The notes: generated by a model not told the origin, from the letters alone. DNA of 44,613 nucleotides from an archaeon (GCA_037442745.1 JBBIPP010000013.1:1-44613); one strand, 5' to 3'; counted from the stretch's first letter, positions 1,425 to 44,613 are shown. Numbers and translations: made by a program.

Positions 1425-2110
1425 TCATAAATTGAGGAAGCTTGAAGAGGAATAGTTTCCCCCGGCAATTCCGAGGAGATAATGGAACGGCGTCACGGAG
1501 AAGCTGAAATATGCGCCTGAGAGAAATGTCGCGGATTTTTTCCTTTCCCAGAAAGCGCCTGAAGGAATAACGAACAGCGTTGCAAGGGAGAAAGTGGTTG
1601 ACAGAAGGAAAGCAAAAGTTCCCCCAGTTATTAGAGCAAACGGGACGTTTTCCGCCAATTCTTTCATTAAAAAGCTCCAGAAAACGAATCCGAGCGCAAG
1701 TGAGGGAATTCCCATTCCGATTATTTTCTAGAGTGCTTCGTTGTTCCTCTTTTGCCAGCTTTTCTCCGGTTCAAATGCGAATAACAGGGCGGTTGCAATA
1801 TGCCCAGCGGAAAAAAGGAAGGTGGCTGAGAATATTGGCAGAATTCTTGTTGAATAGGCGAGTTAATACGCCCCCTAACTATGTTGCCTGCAAGAAATGT
1901 CCCGGCGCTGAGGACCAATAGAACCGCCCTTTCCTTTCCTGAAAATAATAGGACTAGGGCCGGACAGAGGCAGAACTATGCAGAAGCAAGGTGGACAATG
2001 TTCCTTGCGTTGAGAGGATTTGTCAAGTGGAAAACTGAAAGAAATTGGACCGAGAAGGAAAATTGCCCAGAAAAAGTGCTTGTATGCAATCTTGCTGAAA
2101 AGCAGTTTTC
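1425..2110 (-). pseudogene. Decayed multi-pass membrane protein gene
   Basis: Hydrophobic segments continue across frames (KHFFWAIFLLG / ALVLLFSGKERAVLLVLSAG / RILPIFSATFLFSAGHIATALLFAF). An in-frame TAG at 1728-1730 lies just upstream of the 1425-1715 ORF. Family not recognised. Confidence 0.55.
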
Positions 2111-2153
2111 ACATTTAAGGGAATTTTTCCGTCGGCCGTCCTATTTAGAGTTT

Positions 2154-2621
2154 TCAGTAATTGACCTTGACTCTCTTTACGTGCCACTCTTTCATTATTG
2201 GGAGTATTTCCCCTCTGCCAATCTGCTCGGTAGGAACCCCTCTTCGTTTCCCAGTGAGAATGTCATAGAAGAATTCGTCGTCAAAGCCAATTCTCGCGGC
2301 ATCCTTCCTAGTTGCCCCGAAATGAATCCTCTCAATTCGCGCCCAGTGTATTGCGGCAAGGCACATCGGGCAGGGCTCGCAGGTAGAATAAATTTCGCAT
2401 CCAGAGAGGTTGAAACTTCCGAGTTTCCGCGCAGCCCCTCTTATTGCAACAATTTCAGCGTGCGCTGTCGGGTCTTTTGAAGAGGGGACTCTGTTTCGCC
2501 CCTTTGAGACAACCATCCCTTTTCGGACAATTACTGCGCCAAATGGCCCGCCAGAACCTTTCCGCACCCCGAGTTCAGCCTCCTTCAATGCAATCTTCAT
2601 GAATTTCTCTTTCATTTCCAT
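2154..2621 (-). CDS. guaD: Guanine deaminase, cytidine-deaminase fold (Bacillus GuaD type)
   Basis: GGPFGAVIV, DPTAHAE, TCEPCPMC zinc motif, WARI and GFDDEFFY. Confidence 0.88.
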   Translation of the reverse strand: MEMKEKFMKIALKEAELGVRKGSGGPFGAVIVRKGMVVSKGRNRVPSSKDPTAHAEIVAIRGAARKLGSFNLSGCEIYSTCEPCPMCLAAIHWARIERIHFGATRKDAARIGFDDEFFYDILTGKRRGVPTEQIGRGEILPIMKEWHVKRVKVNY

Positions 2622-2719
2622 TCGGCACTAGGCGGAACGGCAACCCTTTTATCTAGTTTTCCCAGCGTTTCCGGTCAATACCAAAAATTGTCCCTGTTTC
2701 GGGCTCGAAATACGCGCAA

Positions 2720-3005
2720 TTCCCGATAGCAGCGAACCCTTTCCAAATTTTTTGACTATTCTTCATTGACTGGTGGCTTGCGCCAATCCTTTTCCTCTAT
2801 TGGCTGGAATCTGGAATTATTGGATTTTTCAACATTCTGAAAATGGCGGTCTCCTCATCTCCCACCATCCCTCCAGCTCCCTCACAACCTTCCAACGCCC
2901 GGATGTTTTGGAGGATTTTTGCGGGCTTTTCAACCCCTTCTTCATTATTCACTATTCAATTTTTCTATCAGCTCACCTTATTTTCTTGCTGATTTTCTTC
3001 GGCCT
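2720..3005 (+). pseudogene. DUF6498-like membrane protein remnant
   Basis: Reads AANPFQIF*LFFIDWWLAPILFLYWLESGIIGFFNILKMA with TGA at 2753-2755, then frameshifts to PFFIIHYSIFLSAHLIFL. This matches the LYW.E..IG.FN.LKM and FF..HY pattern I recall for DUF6498. Confidence 0.65.
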
Positions 3006-3009
3006 GTCA

Positions 3010-3510
3010 ATCGACTTGAAGAATTGCCGAAATACTACTCGGCACAGCCCTCCAATTCTCAAGCAATTTTCCTCCTTTTCGTCGAATTTCTGGGAGGGGA
3101 CTGTCGGCTCAATTGCTTTTTTCAGGAACAGCCGGCCAGAAAAACCCTCCCCTCGGCGTTTCATGATACGCTCAATTGAGGGAAAAATCGACGACTTTGC
3201 CTCAATCAGGAGGTTGTTCTTAGGCGGTACTCGCGCATTGTATCGGAAAATTCCACCTTCCGGACCTGATTGTAATTGACAGATTGGCCGGACAGCTCTC
3301 CTCCGCCAAAAAATCCCTTGAAAAATTTGGAATTGAACTCCAGATGGTTCCTTCGCCAAAAGAGAGGAGGAGATGCATTTTCCCGGAGGCGGACTCTCCC
3401 CCTTCCAAAGAATTCTCCGGCCATTCAGCTCCCCCGTAGGGTGCAAGGCTAGGCCAAAAGGTTCGCAATCTCCTACAACGGCAGGTTATCTGGAAGAAAA
3501 GGAAAAATAG
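3010..3510 (+). pseudogene. uvrC: Excinuclease UvrC remnant (RNase H-like endonuclease region)
   Basis: Colinear motifs across several frames: TVGSIAFF..RPEK..RRFMIRSIEGKIDDFASI, EVVLRRY, LPDLIVIDRLAGQLSSA, AKREEEMHFPG and RVQG*AKRFAISYN (TAG at 3450-3452 replaces the E of DEAHRFA). Confidence 0.85.
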
Positions 3511-3537
3511 ATAATACCTTGCCAATTTGTCAATTGA

Positions 3538-4731
3538 ATGGTTTTGGTCGCTTCAGAAGGATTTGCTCTCTCTCTGATATTCGCCTTCCTTGGGATAATT
3601 GCAATAGGAATTATCCTTCGTCTCCTCCGTCAGCCCCATGTCATAACATACATACTGGCGGGAGTTCTCCTCGGGCCTTTTTCCCTTGGCCTTGTGAAAG
3701 ATTATGAAATGATAGCTTCCTTCGGAGAAATAGGGATAATTCTTCTTCTCTTTTTCGCTGGAAGCGAGATATCTGTGAGGAAGCTTGCGCGAAACCTAAA
3801 AATTCCTCTTTTCGGCACCCTTCTTCAAGTGGGGGTGAGCGTGATATTCGCGACGCTCTTGGGAATTTTCCTAAAATGGTCTCCCGCGAAAATAGTCCTC
3901 TTCGGATTCATAATATCCCTGTCAAGCACCGCAGTTGTCCTCCGTCTCCTCGACGAATGGGGAGAGCTTGACACAAAGGTTGGGCAGACTGTCCTTGGGG
4001 TTCTTCTTGTCCAAGATGTTATAATTGTCCCGATGATTGTTATAATAGGGCTTTTTGCGGGGAATTTCGAGACAGGAACATTGGCACTCCAGGCAGCGGG
4101 CTCTGTGCTGGTCGCCCTATTCGTCTACTGGCTTTTCAGGGCGGAAAAAATAGCTTTCCCATTCCGCGATCTGATAAAGCGAGACGACGAGCTCCAGGTG
4201 TTCGTGGCAATTGTCCTCTGCCTCGGGTTCTCCCAATTGACTGCGTTCTTCAAGCTGTCCTCCGCTCTCGGAGCCTTCCTTGCAGGCTTATTTGTTGCAT
4301 CAATTGAGGAGACGTCCATTGTCCACAAAATAATGCACCCTTTCCGCGTGATTTTTGTCGGAGCCTTCTTCGTTTCAGTTGGGTTAATCATAAACCCATT
4401 CTTTGTTCTTGAAAATCTCGGCAAGATTGTCCCTGTTGTTCTGTTCGTTTTCCTGATAAACACTGCAATAAATTCGGGAATCCTCCTTTACCTCGGAAAC
4501 CGCTTCAAGGAATCTGTATATGCGGGCGCTCTCCTCTCTCAAATAGGGGAATTCAGCTTCGTCCTTGCCGGAACCGGGCTTTCTTTAGCAATAATAGATT
4601 CGGAGAGCCATGACTTTTTGATGTCAGTTATTGCGCTTACGCTCCTTGCGACGCCGTTTTTCATATATGCAATAAAGAGGATTTTCGGGATAACGGGGCA
4701 AAACTACAATTTCGAGGCAAGCCATCCCTGA
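3538..4731 (+). CDS. CPA2/Kef-type cation:proton antiporter (membrane domain only)
   Basis: YILAGVLLGP, LSSTAVV, LLVQD, ALGAFLAG, FFVSVG and SQIGEFSFVL. No KTN domain. Confidence 0.93.
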   Translation: MVLVASEGFALSLIFAFLGIIAIGIILRLLRQPHVITYILAGVLLGPFSLGLVKDYEMIASFGEIGIILLLFFAGSEISVRKLARNLKIPLFGTLLQVGVSVIFATLLGIFLKWSPAKIVLFGFIISLSSTAVVLRLLDEWGELDTKVGQTVLGVLLVQDVIIVPMIVIIGLFAGNFETGTLALQAAGSVLVALFVYWLFRAEKIAFPFRDLIKRDDELQVFVAIVLCLGFSQLTAFFKLSSALGAFLAGLFVASIEETSIVHKIMHPFRVIFVGAFFVSVGLIINPFFVLENLGKIVPVVLFVFLINTAINSGILLYLGNRFKESVYAGALLSQIGEFSFVLAGTGLSLAIIDSESHDFLMSVIALTLLATPFFIYAIKRIFGITGQNYNFEASHP

Positions 4732-4775
4732 GCCCACAAGGGAAGAGAATATTGGCGGAGTTTTCGCCCAAAGTG

Positions 4776-4783
4776 TTTTAAAA
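4776..4783 (+). promoter_or_regulatory. TATA box of the uvrB remnant
   Basis: TTTTAAAA ends 24 nt upstream of the ATG at 4807, the same spacing as at intact genes in this window. Confidence 0.5.
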
Positions 4784-4806
4784 CTGGTTTAGGGAGTTCC
4801 CGGAAA

Positions 4807-5260
4807 ATGGCTTCTCCCGAAAAAGTCAGGCAGGAAAATTGACCTGAGGCAATTGAGGCAGTTCGTCCCAGATGCTAATGGACGAATCCTCCTCCGGGAC
4901 GAGCGGAGCCTAATACAGACAATCTGGCCTGACGCTCGGAACATAAATTCCCCGGTAGTTCTCTGTGCCGACCGGGAAACGGCGTCAATTAACTAGGCTC
5001 TTTCGGAGACTGAATGGAGAAGGAGGATGCAGGCGAACTACAACGCTCTCCACAAAATAAGGCCAAGGATAATTGTCAAGCCAATAAAGGATTCGGATGT
5101 GCGGAGAATCAAGGATGTAAAGCACATTCCCAAGGCGGAAATACCGGGGATTATCCTCGCCCTTGAAAGTGAGATGAACCTTGTGGCAGAAAGGCTAGAG
5201 TTTGAGGAGGCGATTTCCCTCCGCGACAGGATTCTCAATCCCAGGAAACTCATTGGCTAA
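4807..5260 (+). pseudogene. uvrB: Excinuclease UvrB remnant (apparent internal deletion)
   Basis: From 4871: DANGRILLRDERSLIQTIWPDARNINSPVVLCADRETASIN*ALSETEWRRRMQANYN...LESEMNLVAERLEFEEAISLRDRI, i.e. the UvrB motif VI region and UVR domain. TAG at 4994-4996. An N-terminal-like PEAIEA follows ATG 4807. Confidence 0.9.
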
Positions 5261-5273
5261 AGACTCGGCCGGC

Positions 5274-6815
5274 TCAAATTTTCCCGGGAAGGGTGAACCG
5301 CTCGCCTATGAAAACGTTGAATTTAGTCCCATCCCCCTCTTCATAGATTAGGCGCGCCCTCCTTTCCAGCAATTCAGATATTTGGGCAATCTCTTTTGCG
5401 TTTATTTCCCCGGAGTAATGCCCTTTGGGGAGGATGAAGATTTCATCGGAATACGAAAAATCGTCTTCTTCCGGGACAAGAAGGCCGTACTCGGGAGCGT
5501 TCATTCCGATGGTTTTTGAGAAAATTTCCCTAGACCATTTCCGCTCAAAGCAGAACGCATAATCTGGGTCGAAGAGGACAAACGACCTTCCTGAGTTTTT
5601 GAGGTTCTCCGAAAGATAGCTCTCCACTGGATGGCTTCCATAAGAGAATTCCGAGAGCCCTACATATCTCTTGTCCTCCTTCAAGAAAGCGCTCACTGCG
5701 AGGAGGATTGCGATTCCGGAGAGCGCTGCCAAGAACAACTGGTTCTTCCTGAAAATCGAGAAAAGAACGACTGAAAAGAGGGGCGCAGTCGGTATCATGT
5801 GGCCGGGAACAACCCATGCGACCGGCGCGAAAAGGAAAAGGATGCTTGCGAGCCATGACAGGAAAAGGCCCCTTATTTCGCCCTTTGAAGAAAGACCCCC
5901 GAGAAGAACTGCCCCGAAAAGAATGTAATAAACCGGCAGAAAACTTCCCTTGTAGGGGTATCCGTCGAAAGCGTGCAGGAAATATCCCCCAGAAACTATT
6001 GTGTAGAGCCTCTCAAGGAAATATGCGCGCATTGAGCCAAAGTCTACAATTCCTGAAAGGCCCTCGAATGAAATGTTCCCGAACGCCGTCTGCATTCCGA
6101 CTGCAATTGCCGAAACAGCCGAAACCAGCATAAATCCCTTGAAGGAAACCTTTCCTTGCCTGACTCCATAGAAAATCACGAACGGGATAAGGAAATAGAG
6201 GAAAATTAGCTTTGAGCATATTCCGACCCCAGCCACAATCCCTAGCAGGAGGGCGTTTTTGGTTATTGAAAATGCGAAAAGGAACATGCAGGCGAAAAAG
6301 GCCACAATTAATTCCGGCCAGACTCCGAATGTCGCGTAATTGGAAACAAGTGGGAGGAAGTACATTAGCAGGGAGGAGAAGAAAGCCCACTTTCTAGGGA
6401 GAAGTTTCTCCCTGGTCGTGAAAATATAGAGGAATATTGGGGCAAGGGAAAAGAGCGCCGCAGTGACAATTCTTGCGTTTATTATCATCCCGAGATTTCC
6501 CGGGGAGAGGATTTCAGAGAAGACCGCATATATGAAAATTGAGGTATACCAGGTGTGGTGGATTGCCGGAGCTTTTGGCATATCCCTGGCAAGCTCTCCG
6601 TTTATAGCAATCCACGCCTCCTCAGACCAGTGGCCTGACGGGAGGAGGATTTCCCTTGAAACGAACGCTATTGCAAGGAGGAAGAGAGCGAGGAAATGGA
6701 TGTTTTTCGAGCCGGATGCTTTCCAAATAGCCTTCATTGTGTTTTCGATAAATGCGCCAGGCTTTCTTCCCAGAGATGTGCGAGAAAAGTTCGCGCGCAC
6801 GTCAAGGATTCTCAT
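5274..6815 (-). CDS. GT-C/ArnT-PMT-like membrane glycosyltransferase
   Basis: About 11-12 TM segments, an acidic WSEE in the first loop, conserved R/E/K positions (NARIV, WPE, CSK) and a soluble C-terminus. ATGA overlap with the upstream permease. Alternative start at 6737. Confidence 0.6.
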   Translation of the reverse strand: MRILDVRANFSRTSLGRKPGAFIENTMKAIWKASGSKNIHFLALFLLAIAFVSREILLPSGHWSEEAWIAINGELARDMPKAPAIHHTWYTSIFIYAVFSEILSPGNLGMIINARIVTAALFSLAPIFLYIFTTREKLLPRKWAFFSSLLMYFLPLVSNYATFGVWPELIVAFFACMFLFAFSITKNALLLGIVAGVGICSKLIFLYFLIPFVIFYGVRQGKVSFKGFMLVSAVSAIAVGMQTAFGNISFEGLSGIVDFGSMRAYFLERLYTIVSGGYFLHAFDGYPYKGSFLPVYYILFGAVLLGGLSSKGEIRGLFLSWLASILFLFAPVAWVVPGHMIPTAPLFSVVLFSIFRKNQLFLAALSGIAILLAVSAFLKEDKRYVGLSEFSYGSHPVESYLSENLKNSGRSFVLFDPDYAFCFERKWSREIFSKTIGMNAPEYGLLVPEEDDFSYSDEIFILPKGHYSGEINAKEIAQISELLERRARLIYEEGDGTKFNVFIGERFTLPGKI

Positions 6816-8683
6816 AGTTCGACGCGTCTCCCGAATAGAAAAATTACAGCCGTCCCGAGAATTGCCGCAAAAAGCAGAATTTCTGGGGGCGTTGGGAACG
6901 CCCCATACACTCCCGCTGTCCGAAGGGCGCCTGAGAAAACGGCGAGAGGAAGCCTTGTCGAAACCGCTTTCAAGCCCTCTGGAAGGAATTCAAACGAGGT
7001 CAGTCCTCCAGAGAGGAACAGGGAAGGAATTGAGAATCCGACAACTGAGAGGAGCGCGCTCGACTCGTCGTTCGAGAGGAAGCCTATTGCAATCCCGAAA
7101 AGGGAGAACACAAAAGAGCAGGAGAGCGCAATTGCCAGGAATGCGGGGAGATTCTGTATCTCGAGCGAGAAGAACAGCTCCCCGAAAACTGCCATAATGA
7201 CTGTCTGCACAAGTCCGAGGAAACCAAAGACTGCCAATTTCGGAGCCAAAAGGCCAAGCGCCCCCTTTCCGGAAAGGGTTGCCCGGAGAAGCGTTCCAGC
7301 CTTTCTCTCAAAGAGAATTGAATTGGCCGATATCAGCATAATGTTGAACATTAGGACAAGAGCAACAATTGCAGGGAAGACGTAGGAGAATCCCCTAGAG
7401 CCGAAAACCGCGCTTTTTTCAAGTCCGAGCGGGCTTATAACAGTCTCAGGCTCCCTTTCAGAAATCCTCCATATTGTCTCTTTAGCACTGGAGAGTTTCG
7501 GGAAAATCTTCTCAATCTCTCCTTGCGTGTTTCTGAAGAGAATTTCCGCTTCCGAGAGTTCAGTCAGCGCGTTATCCCGCTCCTCCGAAAAGAGGGAAAG
7601 CGCCATCTTCATTTCCAAGAGAGCTTCCTTTGCGCGAGAGAGCTTTTTCAAGGAGTCCTCTATTCCCTCCTGCGCGTCCGCCCCTTTGGCTGATGCGTTA
7701 GCGAGGTCGTCCCCGAGAACAGTCAGGTTATCAGAAATCCTCGATATTTTGCCCCGCATCTCCTCTTCCCGCTCGATTCGCTCCTCGAGGGGGGAGACTA
7801 TCTCATCCCAGAATGAAACATTCGGACAGGGAACTGCAAGGCAGGCAGGGTTCTTTGGGGAGAAAAATTCCTTGAACGGCAAAATTGCTCTTAGGATTTC
7901 CTTCGAACCGTTTATGTCCTCCTCGAGAAGGAGGTCGGCTTCCTCAAGGAGAGCCAGCGATTCCCCAAGAGTCCTGTTTGCGGAAGATATTTTTTCGGAA
8001 ATTCCCTTGGAAGTGGAATTCGCGGCAATTAGGCTAAGCCTCTGGGAATCGAGAAAGCCCTCCATTTCAGCGACTTTCCCCTGCATTTCCCCGACAGTTG
8101 CGTTTCCGAGCTTTCGCTTGGCTTCGGAGATCTTCTCCAAAAGACCCGAGAGGCGACTCCTTGCCTGGATTAGCTCAAGGTCTGCGATTTCAAGCTCAAT
8201 TCCGATTTTTCCGAGGCCTTCCCAGGCGCCAGATATGAATGACTCGGAAATGTTTTCGGATATTTCCCTAGTTATCCCGGAGGAATACGCAAGGACAATT
8301 CCGGAGACGTCCTCCTTTGAGTTGTCGTGCAGTATTCTGACTTTCTCCCCTATGCCCTCCGAAATCCGTTCCTCAATTCCCTCAGGGACAACTATTACGG
8401 CGGAAAGCAGTCCTGAGGAGAGGCCTTTCGCGCCATCGTCAGGGCAAGCTGGGGCGCCAGAATACTTTACAATGAAAGGGCCTTCTGAGAGCGAACTGTA
8501 ATACGCCTTGCCGATTTGCGAATTCTCCTCAGCGCAGATCCAAATGGAGATTCCGGAGGCCGACTTGTCGTTGAAAACGTTCCCGAGTATTGCAACAGTT
8601 AGTAAGGGGACTAGGAAAATCAGAAGGAGGGCGTTTCTCGAACGGAGGAAATACAGGAGCTCCTTTCTAATTCCTGCGAGCAA
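6812..8683 (-). CDS. ABC-2 type permease with long coiled-coil ectodomain (YhgE/Pip-like)
   Basis: KELLYFLR plus TM1, a long heptad-rich ectodomain, ERKAGTL and FLSGG...LP C-terminal TM block. Confidence 0.88.
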   Translation of the reverse strand: MLAGIRKELLYFLRSRNALLLIFLVPLLTVAILGNVFNDKSASGISIWICAEENSQIGKAYYSSLSEGPFIVKYSGAPACPDDGAKGLSSGLLSAVIVVPEGIEERISEGIGEKVRILHDNSKEDVSGIVLAYSSGITREISENISESFISGAWEGLGKIGIELEIADLELIQARSRLSGLLEKISEAKRKLGNATVGEMQGKVAEMEGFLDSQRLSLIAANSTSKGISEKISSANRTLGESLALLEEADLLLEEDINGSKEILRAILPFKEFFSPKNPACLAVPCPNVSFWDEIVSPLEERIEREEEMRGKISRISDNLTVLGDDLANASAKGADAQEGIEDSLKKLSRAKEALLEMKMALSLFSEERDNALTELSEAEILFRNTQGEIEKIFPKLSSAKETIWRISEREPETVISPLGLEKSAVFGSRGFSYVFPAIVALVLMFNIMLISANSILFERKAGTLLRATLSGKGALGLLAPKLAVFGFLGLVQTVIMAVFGELFFSLEIQNLPAFLAIALSCSFVFSLFGIAIGFLSNDESSALLSVVGFSIPSLFLSGGLTSFEFLPEGLKAVSTRLPLAVFSGALRTAGVYGAFPTPPEILLFAAILGTAVIFLFGRRVEL

Positions 8684-9350
8684 TTTTCAGGAACACCCCC
8701 TCCAAGTTCTTCTCATTGTGCCTGTTCATCAGCTTCTTCGGGCTCTCTGGAAGAGTCAGTTTTCCATTCAGAAGAATTGACACCTTGTCGAAATCCTCTG
8801 CCTCGTTCAGGTGATGGGTTACAATCAAAAGGGACTTTTTCCGTTTCCGGAGGGAGCGAAAAAGGTCAAGTATTTCCATTTTGCTTATTGGGTCTAGGCC
8901 AACTGTTGGCTCGTCAAGAATGAGGAGGTTTTCCTCTCCAGAGAGCCCGACAAGTATTGAGAGCTTTTTCTTCTGGCCCCCGGACATTTTCCCGGAGATT
9001 TTTTCCGGGTCCAGTCCGAAGAGCTCCTTGTCCGGCTCTTTTCCGTAGAGAGCTGAGAAATATTCGAGGTTCTCTCTCACAGTCATGTACGGGTAGAATG
9101 AATCCGCCTGCGGGATATAGCCAATTTTTCCCTCCCTCTCAACAGTTCCTGAATCGGGGGAAGTTATTCCGAGAAGAACCCTGACAAGGGTTGATTTCCC
9201 CCCGCCGGATGGCCCTATTATTCCGACAATTTCGCCGGAATTAATTGAGAGGGAGAGGTCTGAGAGTATTTTCCTTTTTCCAAAGGACTTGGAAATCCCC
9301 CGGGCATATAGAAAAACCCCCTTTTCAGCCAAGATTCCGGATTTTCGCAA
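8667..9350 (-). CDS. ABC transporter ATP-binding protein
   Basis: Walker A GPSGGGKST, signature MSGGQ, LILDEPTVGLDP and H-loop. The TATA box near 9360 favours a TTG start at 9332. Confidence 0.95.
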   Translation of the reverse strand: MRKSGILAEKGVFLYARGISKSFGKRKILSDLSLSINSGEIVGIIGPSGGGKSTLVRVLLGITSPDSGTVEREGKIGYIPQADSFYPYMTVRENLEYFSALYGKEPDKELFGLDPEKISGKMSGGQKKKLSILVGLSGEENLLILDEPTVGLDPISKMEILDLFRSLRKRKKSLLIVTHHLNEAEDFDKVSILLNGKLTLPESPKKLMNRHNEKNLEGVFLKIARRN

Positions 9351-9385
9351 TCAACACTTTTAAATTGCTCGTTCTGACAGACGGC

Positions 9386-9879
9386 TCAGCCAAGGCGTCC
9401 GTTATTGTGGTGCTTGAGCAGGTGCTTTGCGAATTGCCACGCGACCTCTTGCCCGACAAAAGTCACCAGTACGGCGGCAAGGGTTGCTTCATTGACTTGT
9501 CCGCTTTTTGAGACTTGCTCAAGAGCAATCGCGGCAGGGCCGACTAGTCTTGGAGATATTTTTCCAGCTCCGGCAAGGATATTTAGGTGGGATGCGTAAT
9601 CCCCCTTCCTCCAGGATTCTACCTTCCCCCGCTTTTTTTCCCGAAATAGAGAACATTTTGCGAATATCCGGGAGCTTTTGCCATATCTACATAATCGACT
9701 TGGGCGGACGCATATGCCGGGTCGGAATAAGGGCCTCCGAACAGCTTCTGCCCAGTTATTCTGGCGCCTTCCTTGAAAGTTCCAAATTCTTCTTTCGCAT
9801 ATGTCTTGAAGTTGGAAATGCCGGAGCCCACATTTCCAATCAAATCAAGATACCTTTCGGAAATACGTTCGGTTTTCAT
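9386..9879 (-). pseudogene. Frameshifted orphan gene (about 165 aa if joined)
   Basis: ORF 9879-9619 ends just after an A7/G5 run. The -1 frame stays open to a TGA at 9386-9388. TATA box at 9909-9919. Confidence 0.5.
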
Positions 9880-10020
9880 AATTTACTTCCAACAGTCCCC
9901 TGCTTCTCTTTTATAAAAATTACTATTGTCTAATTGGTATATAATTGAAAAATCAACTTTTTCCTCCATTTTCCAATAAACCAAACCCCTTTTACTCCAA
10001 GATTCCCCCAAAATTCGGAA

Positions 10021-12102: not shown

Positions 12103-12509
12103 TTGGATTTGGAAATACCGAAATTCAGGAAAACTGAATTGGAGCAGGCGGTCAGGATAACGGGAATACCGGAAAAAATAGTTGCCAAATAGGGGCTTTC
12201 AGAGGGCATTCTCGTTGTCTACTGCCCTCACACTACCGTCGCAATTGCGATAAACGAGGGGACTGCCGAGACATTCGTTTTTTATTCGTTCTCTTTTCTG
12301 GAAGCGCAAGAATCGGAAATTCCCTTTACCAACAATTCTAACAACAAAGCTCACCTGAAGGAGGCGATTATTGGAAATTCGAAAACAATCCCAATATCTT
12401 GGGAAAACTCCCTCCCAACTCTCTGAACCCGGGAATCAGTTTCCTCCTTGATTTCGACTGGCCAAAGGAAAGGAATGTGTTCGTCCAGATTATCGGGAAA
12501 ATCGGATAA
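12103..12509 (+). pseudogene. yjbQ: YjbQ/UPF0047 family pseudogene
   Basis: K*GLSEGILVVYCPHTTVAIAINE...AHLKEAIIGNSKTIPI...L*, then frameshifted DFDWPKERNVFVQIIG. Stops at 12190 (TAG) and 12424 (TGA). Confidence 0.88.
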
Positions 12510-12510
12510 A

Positions 12511-13832: not shown

Positions 13833-13970
13833 TTTCAGGCAGATTTTCAGGGAATTTAAAGAGGTTGCCTGTTTTCATGCCTTGTGGAGCGAGTAGAGCC
13901 AGAGGTTCAGTTCGCGGTAGAATTCGCTCCTCTTTCCGTCCCTGTTTCTGCTCTCAGACAGGTACTTGAT

Positions 13971-14498
13971 TCATTTTCGCTGGCTCTCAAAAAACCTTTT
14001 GTCGAGATGGTTCACCCTGCAAGGCGTTCCTTCGAGAAAAACTCCAGTGCCGTCTTCTCGGCAATAAGGCTCGGACGAAACGAATCCCACCTTGCCGAGG
14101 GCGGGGTCCCAAGTGGCATCGAGTGTGGCTACTTTTCCCGGAAGAATTTTTCCGTTGCCGGAGTACTCTAGGTACAGGTGCATTGTCTGGCCGAGGCATT
14201 CGGCGAGGGACCTTAGGCTCTTCGGATAATCCACCTCCAAATCAGACCACAGGAACCTTGACGCAACGTAGACTGCTGAATCCCCCAAGGCAGCCCAAAG
14301 GGAAATGTGCTTGGGCGTGCAGGAGCCCTGTTGCGATGATGCGAACCGGCTTATGAGCGCCTCGTAGTCGTCCGGCTGGCGGACTGCCACAAAATGGACG
14401 CCTTGGACTGCCCGGAAAGTCTCAATTATTTGCGCGCCAGGATCAGTTATGCCGAATTTTCCTGCGAGCCAGCCTTTCAATTCTGAAACCGCGCTCAT
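13971..14498 (-). CDS. Hypothetical protein
   Basis: 175-aa ORF whose ATG overlaps the HAD gene's stop (ATGA). No motif recognised. Confidence 0.6.
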   Translation of the reverse strand: MSAVSELKGWLAGKFGITDPGAQIIETFRAVQGVHFVAVRQPDDYEALISRFASSQQGSCTPKHISLWAALGDSAVYVASRFLWSDLEVDYPKSLRSLAECLGQTMHLYLEYSGNGKILPGKVATLDATWDPALGKVGFVSSEPYCREDGTGVFLEGTPCRVNHLDKRFFESQRK

Positions 14499-15166
14499 GC
14501 GGGCGCCCTCTTCGGCCCAAAAACAAGCTCAGAGAGGGAAGATATTTCTATCGTGTCCGGGAACGGGTTATCGGTTTTTCCGTACCGGTCTATCAGGTAG
14601 GTAGAGAGCCCCGCCCGCCTCGCCGGGGCGATGTCGTTCTCCGGGCTGTTTCCAACGACCGCGCAGTATTCGCATCCGCGGGCAAGCTCCTCCAAGGGAT
14701 AGTTCTCCTTCTCCTCGGCCAGTATCTCAATGTCGAAGAGGCCGTTGAATTCCACCCCCAGGGAATCCAATTTAGCCCTTTTAGGGCCGACTTCCCCTTG
14801 TGTCCAGAGAACCAGGGAATATCCGTTTTCCTTGAGCGACTTGAGGACATCGAGGGTTTCTTGGTAGAAATCCGGCCTCCTGAATGCCGACTTGCCAATC
14901 TCAAGAAGCCTTTTTTCAATTCCCGCTGAATACTCCCTCCTCGCTTCTCCGCACAGCAAGGCATAGGTTGCAACGAAGCTTCCGGGGAGGCGGGTTCCGT
15001 AGGGAACGGGCAGGCTTTTCCGTTCGGAGTAGATTTTTCCGAAAGCTTCCAAGGGGTCTGGCAGGCCTTCTGAGAGAAGGAGCCTTCTGAATTCTTCCTT
15101 CGCCTCGTTTTGGTATTCCTAGAACTTCCAGAGGGTGTCGTCCCCGTCGAAGATTATCCTTCTCAC
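14495..15166 (-). pseudogene. HAD-superfamily hydrolase interrupted by a single in-frame TAG
   Basis: GTG at 15166 gives RRIIFDGDDTLWKF*EYQ... with TAG at 15119-15121, in frame with the 14495-15052 ORF (WTQG, K, VVGNSPENDIAPA). TTTTAAAA at 15192-15199. Confidence 0.85.
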
Positions 15167-15245
15167 TGCAAGGGGGCATTCGAAGCCTTCCTTTTAAAAG
15201 ATTGCGCAGTTTTACCCCTCTTTTGTGGTTTAATCAAGGTTAAAA

Positions 15246-15911
15246 ATGGGCAAGTCCTCCTTTCTCCAAAAAGCCAATGGGCCAATGGGATGCCATATAC
15301 GAGAGGGGGTGGGCTATTCGTATTACGACGTGGAAAAGCCCCATGAAGACTTGGGAAAATTCGCGAAAGAGTGCGCAAAATCGAAGGCACGGCGCATTCT
15401 CGATCTTGGTAGCGGGCTCGGGCGCAACGCCTTTCCCCTGATTGCCGCCGGATGCTCCGTGGCCTGCATTGATTCTTCGCCCAAGGCAATTTCAGCCTTG
15501 AGGAAAAACGGCGTGAAGGGGGCCGTCCTCGGGGACATTTTCGCGCGCCTTCCTTTCAAGGATTCCTCTTTCGACGCAGTAATTGCCGTTCAAAGCCTCC
15601 AGCACGCGCGGGATGGGAGAATACTCCGAGCCCTCTCGGAAGTTAGGCGGGTTCTCAGGAAAGGCGGGCTGTTTTTCCTCACCGTATGCGGGCGCCATTC
15701 GGGAGGGAAAGTGAGATATTGCCTTGTGAAGACGGCTCGCAAGGTCGCCGAGAGGACATATGTCCCGACAATAGGGGATGAAAAAGGTCTTGTCCATTTC
15801 ATTTACGACAAGAGGACGCTTTCCCGCCACCTATCTGGATTCAGGACTTTGGCGTCTTGGAAGGATTCCAAGGACTATTACTGCGTCATTGCCCGGAAAC
15901 ATACTCCCTGA
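15246..15911 (+). CDS. Class I SAM-dependent methyltransferase
   Basis: ILDLGSGLGR, CIDSS, LPFKDSSFDAVI and RVLRKGG. Confidence 0.92.
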   Translation: MGKSSFLQKANGPMGCHIREGVGYSYYDVEKPHEDLGKFAKECAKSKARRILDLGSGLGRNAFPLIAAGCSVACIDSSPKAISALRKNGVKGAVLGDIFARLPFKDSSFDAVIAVQSLQHARDGRILRALSEVRRVLRKGGLFFLTVCGRHSGGKVRYCLVKTARKVAERTYVPTIGDEKGLVHFIYDKRTLSRHLSGFRTLASWKDSKDYYCVIARKHTP

Positions 15912-17004
15912 AAGTCCGCGCGGTTTCCTTCAGGTCGTTCGGCCTCGCCGGGTCCCTCGGGCCCCCAAGGGCAATCCTTGCGTGCACGAAATTCGGGCCC
16001 GGGAGGCTTGCCGATTTCTCGATTGCATGCCCAAGGGCCTCGGGCGAGTCGACGTCGAAGCAGTTCCGGTAGCCGTGGGCTCTGGCAAGCTCCGCCCAGT
16101 CTAGTTTTCCTCCGGGAGTGGGCTCCTCGCTGCATGAGCCGTACGCCTGGTTGTTGACGACAATATGGGTGAGCTTTCTGTCGGGGAGGCTTCCTGCGGT
16201 TATCATCCCGCCTTCCATCATCGATATCGAGGCGTCCCCGTCAACTACCACAACCCCGTTGTCCGGCTTGGCAATTGTCGTTCCCATGCCTATCGGGAGG
16301 GCGAGGCTCATTGAGCCAGTCATGTAAAAGTGCCTTCCGTCATATCCGTTCCTTTCGTAAAGCGTCCTGCTCATTATCCCCGTGTTCGAGACTATTGGAA
16401 GGCCGTATCCGCGAGTGACCTCGTCAATTACGCCGAGGGCCTCGTCCCGAAGCATTGGTCTTCCCCTGATGTCCCTTTCGACCGGCCCGCTTTGCGAATG
16501 CGCATTCCCCTGCCCCGGAACCTTGTAGTCCCATTCGGCTCCGCTGTCGGGGCTCTTCATCTGCCCCCTCTTTATGAGCATTGCAACAGGCCCCCGGATT
16601 TCATCCATTTTCCCGAGGAGCTCAGTCGCAGTCCCCTCGTCCTTGTAGACCCTGTTCGGTATGCCTGCGATGCTCAAGAAAGGCCTTGTGGCCTTGCCCG
16701 TCGCGAAATGCTGGCTCGCGTCCTCCCCGGGACAGCCCCTCCACGTGACTGCCATGAAGACAGGCATTCCGTAGGCCTGCTGGAGGGACAGGGCGTCGTT
16801 GAAACTGTCCATTAACCCCGAGTTCTGCATTGACACAAGGGGCTTTTTCCCCCCTAGCCACATTCCCGCCTCAATTCCCAATGCTTCCGATTCCCTAGTC
16901 GCAAAGACAAACGGCCAATTGGAAGAGTAGAGCCTAAGCGCGTCCTTCTGGACGCCGCAAGGAACCGCCGCTCCGCAGGGATTCGACTTGAGAAAATACG
17001 TCAA
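15886..17004 (-). CDS. Fused ThDP-dependent phosphonopyruvate/sulfopyruvate decarboxylase-like protein (5' end may be eroded)
   Basis: VPC, TRESEA, MQNSGL, WRG..GED..QH, NTGIMSR, FYMTGSMS and the GDA...NN ThDP motif. Confidence 0.85.
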   Translation of the reverse strand: MTYFLKSNPCGAAVPCGVQKDALRLYSSNWPFVFATRESEALGIEAGMWLGGKKPLVSMQNSGLMDSFNDALSLQQAYGMPVFMAVTWRGCPGEDASQHFATGKATRPFLSIAGIPNRVYKDEGTATELLGKMDEIRGPVAMLIKRGQMKSPDSGAEWDYKVPGQGNAHSQSGPVERDIRGRPMLRDEALGVIDEVTRGYGLPIVSNTGIMSRTLYERNGYDGRHFYMTGSMSLALPIGMGTTIAKPDNGVVVVDGDASISMMEGGMITAGSLPDRKLTHIVVNNQAYGSCSEEPTPGGKLDWAELARAHGYRNCFDVDSPEALGHAIEKSASLPGPNFVHARIALGGPRDPARPNDLKETARTFREYVSGQ

Positions 17005-17305
17005 GGGGCAATTCGGGTCGATGGATTTGGGGGTTAGAAAGCCAAACCCACTGTGCTACTCCGAGTCTGCGTCGAGAATGGGCATTTCCCCGTCTCAAAT
17101 ACTGTTCATAAGCCACGAGCTGGATGAGCTAGAGGGCACGCTCGAAACGGGGATGGGCGCTCTAGCCCTTGTCGGAGGGCGGAGCGATTTTTCATCTGAG
17201 ACTGACCCTGCCCTAGCGGAGTTGGCGTTGAGGTATCCGGGAAAGGTCCTGACATACTCCGACTTTTCTCAGATTCCCTCTTTTTTCGGGAATTATTCCA
17301 AGTAA
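16988..17305 (+). pseudogene. 5'-truncated HAD hydrolase (C-terminal half)
   Basis: SMDLGVRKPNPLCY...MGISPSQILFISHELDELEG..GM corresponds to HAD motifs III/IV. Motif I is absent, and the ORF overlaps head-to-head with the decarboxylase. Confidence 0.65.
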
Positions 17306-27926: not shown

Positions 27927-28117
27927 TTGTTTTTTGAAAAAAGTCCTGCCCTTTTTAAGCCTGTTTAAAGAGCCGATTTCAAAAAAGAATATATCCTGAC
28001 AATTTCCACTTCTCTGGTATGGGAAAGAAGAAGAAAAAACGCCACTAATTCGGGCTGTCTGAGAAGCAAGAGTGTTCCCAGCACCCCCTTATTTTGAATT
28101 CAGGGGCGAGAGTAGGC

Positions 28118-31858: not shown

Positions 31859-32008
31859 GCGAGGTCCGTGCAAAGGGGGCAATCGGCACGGGCAAGAGCG
31901 CTATCTTTCCGAAAGAAAAATCTAGGCGAGGTCCGTGCAAAGGGGGCAATCGGCACGGGCAAGAGCGCTATCTTTCCGAAAGAAAAATCTAGGCGAGGTC
32001 CGTGCAAA
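31829..32008 (+). repeat. 67-bp perfect tandem repeat, about 2.7 copies, containing the trxB 3' end
   Basis: The unit gagcgctatctttccgaaagaaaaatctaggcgaggtccgtgcaaagggggcaatcggcacgggcaa starts at 31829, 31896 and 31963 (the last copy is 46 nt). Confidence 0.97.
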
Positions 32009-32009
32009 T

Positions 32010-32521
32010 ATGTTACTTTTGCAATTACCGGACTCTTTTCCGCAATCTCGACATATTCGGCACGGCAGTTTTCTTCCTTTCGGACGAAAACCTCGACCTC
32101 TTGAAGAGAGTCCGGAGAAACGCAGTTCTTCTCAATTGCAGTTCTGATATGTCTGTTGTGGTATTTGAAAAATCCTTCTTCAAGCGCGCCTCCACTCTCC
32201 TGTCTCGAGAACTTTCCTCGCCTATTAGGGGCTTGTTGACTGCTGGGGAATAGTTTCCTTCTTCCCTTGAATGCCTGCCAATACTGGCGGAGGATGCAAA
32301 AAACTGTCCGGTTGTTGCCGGGCTGTCGGCAAACGCATTTCCAAAGCCATCTCCCGGTTTCTCAACCAATTGCTCCCTTGAGGGACTTTTCTCATACGTT
32401 GTCAGAACATATCCGACACATTTTTTCCCCTCTAGAGAAAAGTCTCAACAATCCCAGTTTCTTCGAACCTGTTAGATGTCAAAATAACTGTTCCGTCCGA
32501 AAAGCGCAATACTATTTTCAG
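32010..32521 (-). pseudogene. Possible decayed gene of unknown family
   Basis: TTTTTATAAA near 32547-32556 is followed at start-codon distance by CTG-KIVLRFSDGTVIL...FL*, then ORF fragments in several frames. Confidence 0.35.
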
Positions 32522-32560
32522 TTCAGTTTTGAAGAAAGATGACAACTTTATAAAAAGGCA

Positions 32561-41303: not shown

Positions 41304-41962
41304 ATGCGCCCTCAAGAAGAGGTATTTGGCACTTGCAATCCATTCGGGTTCAGAGAAAGCGCAGAATCGAAATGCGTTAAAAGCATTGTGTGCGCAGGAG
41401 ACTTTGCCTGAGAAGGAAGCCTCCTGATAATTGACACAATCAATTCATGCTGTTCCCGTGAGTTTGAGCAGACAAAGAGGAGAATAACTTTCTCAAAGAT
41501 ACTGAAAATCGTTCCCGGACTGGAAAAATACTTCTCCTCCTATAGGAAACTGGGCGGACGCGTAATATTCTTTGCATGCGCCCAGCGGACAAGGGAGTTC
41601 CTGCCTTGAAACATAAGGGCGCTCTATGAAACTTTCCCTCCTTCAGATATTATTCCAAGGACAAGACAGGAAAAATGGGAGAGGGTTTTCAGGAAATCAA
41701 ACTATGAAGCCTTCACGAACCAAGCTCTCGGAAAATTCCTGCGGAAAGCGTGGATTGAAACTCTCCAAATTTCCGGAGTGTTCCCAGATTCATACGTTAA
41801 AGTCACCATAAACAGGGATTTCTCAAGGTGATATTCGATAAGGATTCTGGGGATTTGGCTGAAACGACAGACTTCCGGACAAGGCAGCGCCTCCAAAAGC
41901 TCCTGAATGAATATTTCTGGCCAATTTTCCACTGCCAAGTCATTTCTTCGAAAGTTTTCTGA
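41304..41962 (+). pseudogene. Isochorismatase/cysteine hydrolase family pseudogene
   Basis: LLIIDTIN...GGRVIF...VFRKSNYEAFTNQAL..FLR...IETLQISGVFPDSYV..TI..DFSR*YSIRIL. TGA at 41409, 41607 and 41829, a late frameshift, and Y in place of the catalytic Cys. Confidence 0.82.
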
Positions 41963-42523
41963 GAATTTCTTTCAGCGTTTCCTCAGCCTTTTTCGGGTTC
42001 CCCCTTCCGACAGGAAAGTAGCACGGATAGATTGGATACTTTTTCCCGGAAATGTCCACTGAAAACAGTTTCCCTGAGCTCTCTTTCAGTTTTATTTTTT
42101 TGCCGGCAATTGCCTCAAAGGGAATAAGACCTATTGCAATAATTGCCCTTGAGCGCATTCTTTCTATTTCGTGGAAGAGCTTTTTTCACCCCCTCCTAAT
42201 TTCATCCTTTCCGGGATTCCTCCCATAAGGTTTTGTCTCCTTGCAGAGGTTTGTCAGGGCGATTTTTCCTTTTTTGAGGGTTCTCTCAAGGCCCCTTGCG
42301 AATCCTACAGTCCAGTCATCCTCTCTTATACGGGAAAACTCCCCTGAAACAAGCCCTGCATTCGAAAGGACTTTCCATACCGGCTCGTCCCGACGAACGG
42401 AAATCTTGGCCCCTTCTAGGATTTTTTCGAGGAAATGTTCCTTGCAGTAGGGTTGATGAAAACCAAGACAATGTCCGGACGTTTCAGGCACCCTCCGGCG
42501 GGTATTGGAAGTAGCCGGCCCAT
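41940..42523 (-). pseudogene. Uracil-DNA glycosylase-like family pseudogene
   Basis: GGCLKRPDIVLVFINPTARNISS..*KG..PFVGT (TAG 42416-42418), frameshift, then TNLCK...EI...*..LFHEI...IIAIG...YPCYFPVGRG (TGA 42186-42188). Confidence 0.75.
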
Positions 42524-43309
42524 TCAGATTCTCCTGCCAATTCCTACTAGAACCGGAACTGTCGAGTTCTCATATATTACGAAATTGGCCTTCTTTTCAT
42601 AATATCCTTCAGCATTTATTGTGGCGAAATATCCCCCTACAGGGAGGTTGAAGAGAGCGGTTCCGTTCTCAATAGTATCCTTTGTCAAAACAGGCCTGCC
42701 AATTGAATCTGTGATGTGGACTGTTGCTCCGGCAATCGGGGACCTGCTTGAAGCATCAATTACCCTGACTTCAGAGAAGCCCGAATTTGGAAGTGGTTCT
42801 GCTTCTGGAGCAACTGGCTCAGGAGCGCTCTTACGAAGGTGAATTGCCAGTTCGGTTTCCCTTTCGGGGGAAACTTCTGCGGAAACCTCTTGCCCGAAGA
42901 AGCCGTTTGCGCTAACCCTGACAAAATAGGTCCCTTCAGTTATTCTGTAGAACTCGACTTCGCCAAGAGTCCCTGTCACAAGCTCGAGGTTCTCGACTCC
43001 CAATATTGCGACAGTTGCCCCGGAGACTGCTTCTTCAGTTCCTTCCGAGAGAATTTTGATTGAGAGTTTGCCTTTTCCTAGCTCAGTTGTTGTTGGTTGG
43101 GTTGTGGCCGGAACCGAACCAGTTCCGGAGGAAGTTGTTGTTTTCTCTTGGTTGGCTCCCTGAGAATTTCCGGAATCTCTGCTTCCAAAGAAAGGAACTG
43201 CCAGCACAAGAACCGCAAGAATTAGAACAACTGCCCAGAAGAATGCTGGGATTTTGTTCGGGGATTGGGTTTCCCTTGTTTTTGTCATTTTCAGGAATAT
43301 CCTCTGCAT
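42524..43309 (-). CDS. Membrane-anchored protein with two carboxypeptidase-regulatory-like beta-sandwich repeats
   Basis: N-terminal TM, a Thr/Ser-rich linker, and two repeats of V.GATV...T..G...F....G.Y...V.A.G. The start may be 43288. Confidence 0.8.
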   Translation of the reverse strand: MQRIFLKMTKTRETQSPNKIPAFFWAVVLILAVLVLAVPFFGSRDSGNSQGANQEKTTTSSGTGSVPATTQPTTTELGKGKLSIKILSEGTEEAVSGATVAILGVENLELVTGTLGEVEFYRITEGTYFVRVSANGFFGQEVSAEVSPERETELAIHLRKSAPEPVAPEAEPLPNSGFSEVRVIDASSRSPIAGATVHITDSIGRPVLTKDTIENGTALFNLPVGGYFATINAEGYYEKKANFVIYENSTVPVLVGIGRRI

Positions 43310-43406
43310 TCTTTTTAACTTTTCCAGAAAATACGGGATTTGGCCTATTTGGGAACTGCTTTGGGAAAAAATTTAAACAAAAGTCAAGATGTAACTGCGA
43401 CATAAA

Positions 43407-44360
43407 ATGAAAAGCCTCACAATTTCAGTTGTTTCTGATTCAAAAGATTTGCGGGAGAGAATATGCCGGGAGCTCGGGAAAAAGAGCCCGGGCGAGGATG
43501 ACTTGAATTTTTACAATTCCAAGTACTCTGAGCTAATACTAACTGCAATTGAGGCGGCCAGGTTCCCCGAAAAGGTCCAAAGCATCCTATATTCTCTCGC
43601 AATATCTGATTTTGTTGTACTTGCCGTCGAAAAAATCACCTCGGCAATTGGCGAAGCAATTGTTGCAACAGCTCTTTCGCGAAAGCAGGGCCTGATATTC
43701 ACTTCCCTTCAGCCGGAAGAGCTCATTCCCCTGACAAAAGACACCCCTCTTGCACATTTCCCGGTCTTTTCGGAAATTCTTCCAATGAGGACTGCTGTTC
43801 TCTCATTTTCGCCCGGGAGAATTGATGGCGCGCTCAAGGGGATAATTGACAATTCCTTTGACGTCAAGGGAGTCGGTGCGGTTGCCCTAGGATTCGTTTC
43901 AAGGGGAACTTTGAAAGTGCACGACAAGCTTTCGGTTTTTCCGTCCGGAAAATCGCTCCAAGTCCGCTCAATACAGATGCACGACGACAACTATTCCTCT
44001 GCCTCCGCAGGGGACCGCTTTGGGATATCCTTCAGGGGCGTCCCGGCTGACGAGCTCTCAAAGGGGGATATACTGTCCTTTCCGGGGAGAATTCAGGTGT
44101 CAAAGGGATTCTCCGCCAGAGGGACTCTCTCCAAATTTTCGAAAAAAGCGCTCTCCGGAGGGGAGAAAATACACGTCTCAATCGGCCTCCAGTTCGTTCC
44201 CGCGAAAATAGTCTCTGGCTCAATTGAGCCTGGAAAGGAGGGGTCAATTGACTTGGCTTTCGAGGCGCCCGTTGCATATGATTCGGACGACACTATCTAC
44301 TTTGTCCGGATGAACGAAAAGCTCCTCCGGGTTGTCGGAGCGGGGAAAGCGTCCGCCTAA
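43407..44360 (+). CDS. Archaeal SelB-like protein (aSelBL; degenerate G domain plus EF-Tu domains II/III)
   Basis: FPEKVQS, IGE.IVA, IDNSFDVKGVGAVALG, VRSIQMHD and GDRFG. No P-loop. Confidence 0.85.
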   Translation: MKSLTISVVSDSKDLRERICRELGKKSPGEDDLNFYNSKYSELILTAIEAARFPEKVQSILYSLAISDFVVLAVEKITSAIGEAIVATALSRKQGLIFTSLQPEELIPLTKDTPLAHFPVFSEILPMRTAVLSFSPGRIDGALKGIIDNSFDVKGVGAVALGFVSRGTLKVHDKLSVFPSGKSLQVRSIQMHDDNYSSASAGDRFGISFRGVPADELSKGDILSFPGRIQVSKGFSARGTLSKFSKKALSGGEKIHVSIGLQFVPAKIVSGSIEPGKEGSIDLAFEAPVAYDSDDTIYFVRMNEKLLRVVGAGKASA

Positions 44361-44613
44361 TTGAGCTTTTTCCTGTAGATCAGCCGGAAAACGCCGAACT
44401 TTTCGCTTTCATATTGCGCCCCTGCCAAGGAATTGTCCTCTTTTACCTTCATTGAAATGTAGGAGAATCCGGATTTTTTGGCTTCCGAAATCTCTCTTTC
44501 AAGAAGGCGCCTTCCGAAGTTTTCATTCTCTCTTTAGAACCTCTTTGAAGATTATTGGGTTTTCTTTACGCCAGTCAACGGATTTTTCTTTTTTGAAAAG
44601 AAAAATTGGCGAG
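44357..44613 (-). pseudogene. GNAT acetyltransferase remnant (runs off the window edge)
   Basis: SKRF*RENENFGRRLLEREISEAKKSGFSYISMKVKEDNSLAGAQYESEKF...YRKKLN*, with an in-frame TAA at 44534-44536. Confidence 0.6.

Follow-up and report, generated by a model that had tools for sequence, protein, structure and literature searches.

The DNA described here is a stretch of 44,613 bases, hereafter the window, that makes up the whole of contig C13 in the archaeal genome G000 (1,136,343 bases in 20 contigs, listed as 94.5% complete and 0.6% contaminated). Our subject is the set of broken genes that lie between its intact genes, and the load of such genes in the genome as a whole. By Pfam, the archaeal affiliation is apparent from a block of exosome, proteasome-alpha, SBDS, and RNase P genes, as well as from S2, L15e, aTrm56, SMC, and ATP-dependent DNA ligase. 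The window sequence is present in two public runs of one study, X1 and X2, both labelled subsurface metagenome, and next to none of it occurs in run X3. The relatives used for comparison are a sister species of the same genus (G001; ligase 69% identical), two members of the same family (G003 and G002), and one of the same order (G004). The listed genomes of these relatives all measure 0.9–1.2 Mb and, because genomes of this size occur throughout the family and order, the small size of G000 is taken to be old. The guanine-plus-cytosine (GC) content is 48.9% in G000, 53.9% in the sister species, 63.2% in G003, and 59.0% in G004.

The inventory of the window is based on a map of open reading frames (ORFs), on Pfam searches of these ORFs and of the six read-through frames (with X at stops) of 16 gaps, and on tblastx and tblastn comparisons with the syntenic contigs of G001 and G003. 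Judged by the ORF map and by full-length matches to Pfam or to these two relatives, 46 ORFs look intact, among them a handful of small or family-less putative ORFs (1425-1715, 13971-14498, and 32025-32369). Eight further loci are homology-supported remnants, namely those of DUF6498, uvrC, uvrB, UPF0047, two HAD hydrolases, an isochorismatase, and a UDG-like glycosylase (Table 1). The local share of remnants is 8/54 (15%), or at most 12/58 (21%) if four unexplained gaps are counted as well. An initial annotation, made from the sequence alone, had given about 12 broken genes among about 44 intact ones and had remnants filling nearly every gap; its count was somewhat high and of the right order, and four of the gaps contain no detectable homology. 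Its statement that the long core genes carry no lesions is borne out, as smc (1189 amino acids), the ligase (587 amino acids), pyruvate kinase, and Rrp41, Rrp42, and Rrp4 are all full length against the sister species. In these core genes, the window follows the gene order of G001:C2 and G003:C36, and the remnants are located at breaks in synteny.

Table 1. Coordinates of the remnants and other features of the window, counted from its first base
Feature	Position	Strand	Evidence or remarks
DUF6498 membrane-protein remnant	2726..2989	+	PF20108, E 2.5e-12 in read-through; in-frame TGA at 2753 and 2990
uvrC RNase-H endonuclease domain remnant, in two frames	3094..3361	+	PF08459, two collinear pieces
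uvrB C-terminal remnant (UvrB domain and UVR motif)	4871..5257	+	PF12344, E 7.6e-12; PF02151, E 3e-6
UPF0047/YjbQ pseudogene	12109..12488	+	PF01894, E 2e-11; TAG at 12190, TGA at 12424
HAD hydrolase with a single nonsense codon	14495..15163	-	GTG start near 15163; DGDDT; TAG 15119-15121 (~codon 15)
Second HAD-like C-terminal remnant, weak	16988..17305	+	PF00702, E 0.022; PF13242, E 0.03
Isochorismatase-family remnant	41421..41846	+	PF00857, E 3.3e-7 in read-through, 1.8e-5 for one piece
UDG-like glycosylase gene with one TGA (42186-42188)	41943..42500	-	PF03167, E 2e-6
3.4 kb stretch of 55% GC	13833..17292		Missing from G001 and G003 at this place; GC 0.55/0.54 vs ~0.49 elsewhere
Unexplained gap	1716..2153		Weak DUF3054 match only, E 0.0019; left out of the pseudogene count
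Unexplained 670-bp gap	9351..10020		No Pfam match; ~100 bp at the same place in G001
Unexplained gap	27927..28117		No Pfam or relative match
Unexplained gap with unsupported 114-aa ORF	31859..32560		Includes tandem-repeat copies
Right-hand end of ~460-bp dispersed repeat	1..147		blastn

The remnants differ widely in how far they have decayed. At one end is the first HAD hydrolase, in which the nonsense codon lies exactly where the initial annotation had placed it, directly after the DGDDT motif; the downstream ORF (14495-15052) covers positions 99-191 of the PF00702 model only, and the lesion sequence is identical in the contigs of both runs. The UDG-like gene, likewise interrupted by one stop, is 36% identical over 185 amino acids to an intact gene of G003. 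The UPF0047 gene matches the solved YjbQ proteins 1xbf and 1vmh (phmmer, E 3e-9), and its collinear copy in the sister species is broken too, with the frame ending elsewhere. Because the two copies have different break points and are still 57-64% identical, we read them as probable cases of parallel, recent inactivation. The isochorismatase remnant has four in-frame TGA codons (41409, 41607, 41829, and 41904), in keeping with the multiple stops claimed for it at the outset. As for the catalytic residue said to be lost, a tyrosine stands opposite the cysteine of the GVWTNVCV stretch in the solved homolog 3hb7 (alignment E 9e-4), a cysteine that we take to be catalytic.

In the DUF6498 remnant, a stop-free piece at 2756-2989 (E 3.6e-11) covers model positions 27-80 of 207 only. 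The RNase-H domain of uvrC is split over two frames, at 3094-3216 (model 24-63, 19.7 bits) and 3248-3361 (model 75-113, 17.9 bits), so that the decay described for this gene earlier is upheld at low scores. The uvrB remnant has lost its first ~520 codons and contains a TAG at 4994 inside the match; it is 56% identical over 129 amino acids to residues 227-354 of the C-terminal half of the uvrB gene in G003. That gene is itself divided (G003:C36; L005:478-2564) into two overlapping ORFs, one for the N-terminal helicase half and one for the C-terminal half. Between a deaminase and an ABC-2 permease, the same locus holds a nitroreductase and a NUDIX gene in the sister species, and a NUDIX gene and the split uvrB in G003. 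The second HAD-like remnant has a tblastx match to a paralogous region at G000:C15:10610-10801 (E 3.6e-5, weak), and its N-terminal half would fall under a gene for a thiamine pyrophosphate (TPP) enzyme on the opposite strand.

Both HAD remnants lie in the GC-rich stretch of the window, which also contains an S-adenosylmethionine methyltransferase, a TPP-dependent decarboxylase-like gene (372 amino acids), and a 175-amino-acid ORF. Synteny passes over this stretch, from 13796 to 17311 against the sister species and from 9317 to 17273 against G003. Its content resembles what might be left of a cluster for a phosphonate or sulfonate pathway.

To place the window in its genome, we compared the whole sister genome (1,231,150 bases) with G000 by reciprocal tblastn, using one pipeline in both directions; contig C1, a duplicate, was left out of these counts. 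ORFs of the sister species fall on 499 loci of G000: 450 are intact, 29 are scored as broken (24 with lesions) and 15 as fragments (10 with lesions), and five lie at contig edges. In the other direction there are 512 loci, comprising 457 intact, 12 broken (four with lesions), seven fragments (four with lesions), and 36 at edges. Stops or frameshifts are thus present at 34/499 loci in G000 (~7%) vs 8/512 in the sister species (Fisher P = 1.4e-5, calculated on 35 lesion loci before one overlapping intact locus was dropped). With a strict filter (query of at least 150 amino acids and at least 80 bits), 12 broken genes and six fragments remain in G000 vs two in the sister species (P = 1.7e-4). G000 therefore carries about four to nine times more homologs with stops or frameshifts than its sister species. 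G003 was tried as a reference and dropped, as its long, partly fused ORFs flag the same seven queries in G000 and in the sister species and give fused-ORF false positives, so that counts based on it are unreliable.

The window is much richer in remnants than the rest of its genome. We scanned gap pieces with Pfam (stop-free, at least 35 amino acids, codon score above 3), a procedure that recovers five of the seven Pfam-supported remnants of the window and misses the UDG-like gene and the first HAD. It found five broken families in the 44.6 kb of the window (61 pieces, 13 gaps) and ~5 in 200 kb of G000 sampled as ten evenly spaced 20-kb blocks (178 pieces, 43 gaps), from which one 5.6 kb gap of 38% GC was skipped. 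The families in the sample are a deoxyhypusine-synthase fragment, a helicase N-terminal fragment, a UvrD C-terminal tail, a weak hydrolase, and an ambiguous glycosyltransferase. The window accounts for 18% of the length scanned in G000 and for five of the 10 events (P = 0.02), which makes it ~4-5 times richer than the remainder. The same scan gave two broken families in 70.6 kb of G001 and one to two in 49.7 kb of G003, and in outgroup samples zero to one in 100 kb of G004 and none in 100 kb of G019. The proportion of one locus in five that the initial annotation proposed therefore roughly describes this contig (15-21%) and does not extend to the genome. The ~15-20% of the window is a local maximum, and the genome-wide figure is nearer 3-7% of loci; the broken share of G000 falls short of tens of percent, and its load is above that of its close relatives.

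Two regions met in this survey deserve separate mention. Deoxyhypusine synthase has three copies in G000 (C9:7333-8181, C3:82464-83375, and C2:147424-148341): one is intact (304 bits), one is an open, divergent paralog (139 bits; ~249 in G001 and G003), and one is a remnant with eight stops. The skipped gap is an island of 5.6 kb and 38% GC in a 49% GC genome (G000:C10:46208-51820). Its ORFs have atypical codon use and it is probably foreign DNA; one broken gene within it has an intact homolog on G001:C41.

Several DNA-repair genes are among those that G000 has lost or is losing. By Pfam on the intact sister counterparts of the lesion loci, the losses include an Ogg-type 8-oxoguanine glycosylase, a two-domain NUDIX protein, two DNA methyltransferases, DJ-1/PfpI, and a DegT aminotransferase, as well as a PP-loop ATPase, a YbaK-type editing domain, BacA/UppP, Pirin, and ZIP, CNNM, and EamA transporters. 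The Ogg gene is intact in G001, G003, and G004 (162-207 bits), that is, in all three relatives with a match over the cut-off. In G000, the only Ogg-type gene is broken: it consists of two fragments (46.8 and 26.5 bits), with seven stops and a scrambled centre in the alignment. The NUDIX gene is reduced to a fragment, and a family search of G000 found no UDG-family match other than the broken UDG-like gene in the window. Among the genes of nucleotide-excision repair, uvrB passes the cut-off in G003 (split) and G000 (remnant) alone and was not found in the sister species; G000-G004 yielded no uvrC domain above the cut-off, and no uvrA was found in the five genomes. An HhH-GPD (Nth-type) gene is intact in all five. 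A search for AGOG (PF09171) was uninformative, with no match anywhere, controls included.

The kinds of lesion suggest how these losses and the wider decay may be connected. Within alignments, the 35 lesion loci of G000 contain 77 stops vs 10 frame changes. Of 70 internal stops, 46 lie one step from the aligned residue of the sister species, and 24 of these 46 are of the G>T kind, against 28.5% expected if rates were uniform (P = 6e-4; P = 1.6e-4 in an earlier tally of 43 one-step stops). The G>T routes counted are those from Gly to TGA and from Glu to TAG or TAA. In the reverse direction, none of the seven stops in lesions of the sister species is of this kind. Unrepaired 8-oxoguanine leads to G:C-to-T:A changes, and unrepaired uracil to G:C-to-A:T changes. 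A dead Ogg gene, a broken UDG-like gene, and a GC content 5 points under that of the sister species are consistent with pressure towards both.

In the sequence of events that we propose, loss of base-excision repair would raise the rates of G:C-to-T:A and G:C-to-A:T changes. Nonsense codons would then arise in weakly selected genes, whether accessory, duplicated, or acquired horizontally, at variable loci of the kind that this contig contains, and slow deletion would keep the remnants visible. The mutational link from repair loss to the excess of nonsense codons is suggestive, and the decay probably follows from the lost base-excision repair. A stronger version, in which one species of the pair became a base-substitution mutator after losing its only Ogg gene together with UDG-like, NUDIX, and UvrBC functions, and is eroding by nonsense while its sister stays compact, is a tentative proposal to which we give clearly less than an even chance.

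Before the gaps are read as decayed genes, two explanations have to be weighed under which they would be nothing of the kind. If in-frame stops were read as sense, for example TGA as glycine, many of the broken genes would be intact. Such recoding would account for the 15 of 32 in-frame TGA codons in broken loci that stand opposite Gly in the protein of the sister species, for the isochorismatase remnant, whose four stops are all TGA, and for the single TGA of the UDG-like gene; under uniform mutation, however, 36% of the one-step routes to TGA start from Gly in any case. Among 385 ORFs of G000 whose C-termini coincide with those of the sister orthologs, the terminal stop is TGA in 144, TAA in 107, and TAG in 134, and ARAGORN found no tRNA with anticodon UCA with the intron search on or off. 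TAG and TAA stops and frameshifts occur in the same loci as the TGA codons, and the lesions of the window include all three stop codons, mixed. With TGA ending 144/385 conserved ORFs and tRNA-UCA absent by ARAGORN, TGA-to-Gly recoding was rejected, and sense reading of stops more generally is extremely improbable. The intron mode of ARAGORN also called a tRNA with anticodon UUA and an intron at G000 121347-121458 (presumably on C2, the only contig longer than 121 kb); this is probably a misplaced intron, because tRNA-Lys(UUU) is otherwise missing from the list. Errors of sequencing or assembly in a low-coverage metagenome-assembled genome are hardly a better explanation. The depth is only ~14x and ~8x in the two runs, and the assembly contains a duplicated contig (C1, part of C6) and 1,220 N. 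Over positions 1-20000, however, we compared the window with Logan contigs of the two runs, which are consensus assemblies made independently of G000, possibly from the same reads. One 38,911-base contig of X1 covers 113-20000 with zero differences, and eight contigs of X2 cover 1376-20000 with short breaks, zero to one differences, and no indels; the sole variant in X2 is G>T at 3092, at the start of the uvrC remnant. This check spans six of the eight remnants, the isochorismatase and UDG-like genes (41-42.5 kb) lying beyond it. Most lesions are substitutions, often several per gene (seven stops each in Ogg and Pirin), the lesion loci are more diverged than intact ones (median identity 48% vs 64%), and the long core genes are free of lesions. 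Over the first 20 kb, the lesions of the window are real, and the case made at the outset against indel error is strengthened both by the contigs of the two runs and by the 77-to-10 surplus of stops; we regard error as a very improbable source of the lesions overall.

A weightier alternative is that the remnants record ordinary turnover of a flexible genome at the usual prokaryotic rate, with pseudogenes at a normal level of a few percent and no phase of erosion. All eight remnants lie at synteny breaks or in the GC-rich stretch that the relatives lack, and core genes are absent from the set. Under the strict filter, 2.4-3.6% of the comparable loci in the genome are affected, long-ORF coverage is near that of the sister species, and G001 and G003 have broken genes of their own. 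Such turnover does not, however, readily explain a four- to nine-fold asymmetry between sister species under one pipeline, the presence of conserved single-copy repair genes among the dead (the Ogg gene above all), or the zero to one broken families per 100 kb in the outgroup samples. On balance we consider it unlikely, though far less so than recoding or error. We favor the reading that the gaps hold genuine pseudogenes at varied stages of decay, a local concentration of lineage-specific decay in an already small genome, and put its probability at roughly two in three. The active reductive evolution proposed in the initial annotation accordingly stands in part: the decay is real and lineage-specific and is accompanied by repair loss and lower GC; its degree was overstated, and the small size is old.

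Several observations weigh against this reading and the mutational account attached to it. The strict share of 2.4-3.6% of the 499 loci is modest, at least two of the 34 loci in the lenient set are artefactual (a fused L21e query and a probable antisense ORF opposite a DUF167 gene), and the higher GC content of the sister genome favors longer spurious ORFs, which may inflate the number of genes scored as broken in G000. No remnant of the window has an intact counterpart in the sister species, so that the evidence from the window and that from the whole genome are without overlap. The relatives contain broken genes too: in the sister species these are UPF0047 and a GT4 fragment, and in G003 they are uvrB, a glutamate dehydrogenase split in two (L007:6124-6906), and a metallopeptidase that is split as well. 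Some of the decay is therefore family-wide. In the comparison of coding density with the sister species, which the initial annotation had proposed as a check, coverage by ORFs of at least 100 amino acids, each genome with its own codon model, is 80.7% in G000 vs 84.0% in whole G001, only 3 points lower. Both uvrC pieces fall under the 22.3-bit Pfam cut-off, and the scores for the second HAD are sub-threshold. The two runs may be the source of the assembly, and their agreement is at consensus level only. As regards the mutation spectrum, when exact one-step codons of the sister species are used, G>T accounts for only 9/22 stops (P = 0.15); the mirror change C>A on the coding strand is rare, and G>T and C>A together make up 27/46 vs 44% expected (P = 0.03). 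Conserved Gly and Glu residues are also easier to recognize in alignments, a possible bias of the stop tally.

Over the syntenic stretch alone, the difference in long-ORF coverage is wider, at 86% in G000 vs 93% and 89% in the relatives. The ORF-free fraction (9.9% vs 3.5-5%) was set aside because it is confounded by GC content (48.9, 53.9, and 63.2%). Choosing the coding strand of gaps by codon score was also discarded, as it failed on known remnants.

The gaps that have no assigned remnant can be described briefly. The first of them may be the broken 5' part of the membrane ORF at 1425-1715, judging by the same frame, which runs on beyond a TAG at 1730. For the gaps at 1404-2160, 9345-10025, 13830-14500, and 31855-32560, comparison with the sister species, with part of G003, and with the remainder of G000 gave no match. 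A perfect tandem repeat (67 bp x 2.7, at 31829-32008) begins in the last codons of a thioredoxin-reductase-like gene (30923-31858) and extends downstream. Pfam assigned no family to the ORFs at 5274-6815, 10021-10980, 13971-14498, 22568-24289, and 24835-25842. At 43407-44360 lies a gene for a 317-amino-acid protein, conserved in G003, in which EF-Tu domain 2 alone is detectable and no GTPase domain was found. A cyclophilin gene and a gene with carboxypeptidase-regulatory-like domains (33290-34045 and 42524-43309) are present in G000 only, at otherwise collinear positions. SBDS and Rrp4, separate genes in G000 and the sister species, occupy a single open frame of 515 amino acids in G003 (G003:C36:31245-32792). 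Rfam at gathering thresholds gave zero matches in the window and two other loci.

The left end of the window belongs to a dispersed repeat of ~460 bp that is present in 12 or more copies, 87-98% alike, and occurs at 21 of 40 contig ends. Internal copies lie in C14, C2, and C7 (for example G000:C14:16086-16548 and 20692-21275), and the depth at 1-667 of the window is 104.8 vs 13.6 elsewhere (~8-fold). The repeat is absent from the sister genome and from 255 kb of G003, and its 158-amino-acid ORF matched no Pfam family. As to the assembly itself, contig ends share overlaps of exactly 55 nucleotides, which we read as a sign of short-read k-mer assembly. Positions 44559-44613 are identical to G000:C9:1-55 (reverse strand; 55 bases) and, because of this end overlap, C13 and C9 are probably neighboring contigs. 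Contig C1 (13.8 kb) duplicates G000:C6:73921-87788 at 99.8-100% identity, an assembly redundancy.

The features of G000 combine elements of systems described separately. The portion of PMC5339279 that treats early reduction in recently host-restricted bacteria describes inactivation before deletion, repair loss, drift towards A+T, multiplication of repeats, and a spared core. G000 resembles the early stage of Serratia symbiotica SAp, Sodalis, and similar bacteria in that inactivation precedes deletion, repair genes are lost, base composition drifts towards A+T, and core genes for information processing are spared; a repeat also seems to have multiplied. The scale in G000 is much lower, as the figures quoted there for S. 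symbiotica SAp are 550 pseudogenes and 60.9% coding density (PMC5339279), whereas G000 has tens of lesion loci and ~81% ORF coverage. Unlike recently host-restricted bacteria, moreover, the family of G000 is already at ~1.1-1.2 Mb, and in G000 nonsense substitutions exceed frameshifts. Those bacteria are restricted to hosts, whereas this archaeon is known from the label "subsurface metagenome" alone.

The small DPANN and nanoarchaeal genomes are closer to G000 in type, since it is a ~1.1 Mb archaeon of subsurface metagenomes with relatives of 0.6-1.2 Mb and has kept its informational core. In the sections of PMC7289037 and PMC5339279 that concern them, these genomes are portrayed as densely coding, with hardly any pseudogenes and with DNA repair still in place. 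G000 departs from those descriptions in pseudogene number and in DNA repair, and apparently also in density. Genome erosion has been described for host-associated methanogens, namely Methanocorpusculum endosymbionts and intestinal Methanobacteriota, in the summaries of 10.64898/2026.05.13.724943 and PMC13135261. G000 shares with them gene decay in an archaeon, theirs being tied in these summaries to a change of lifestyle; they are presented there as larger and host-associated, whereas G000 is a small-genome archaeon of the subsurface. Literature searches brought up no case like that of G000, which does not prove that there is none.

Automatic gene callers would report many such fragments as short "hypothetical proteins", which matters for the annotation of genomes of this kind. 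Beyond annotation, small archaeal genomes are described as dense, pseudogene-poor, and repair-proficient in the passages cited above (PMC7289037, PMC5339279), so that their route to smallness has been inferred and not observed. The present pair of congeneric species shows a several-fold difference in broken genes and also differs in whether a gene for the repair of oxidative damage is live. If the interpretation is upheld, the order from repair loss through mutation bias and nonsense decay to deletion would be testable in an archaeon with existing data. Should the proposal of a mutator lineage also be true, the species pair would represent a natural "before and after" for the onset of genome erosion in Archaea.

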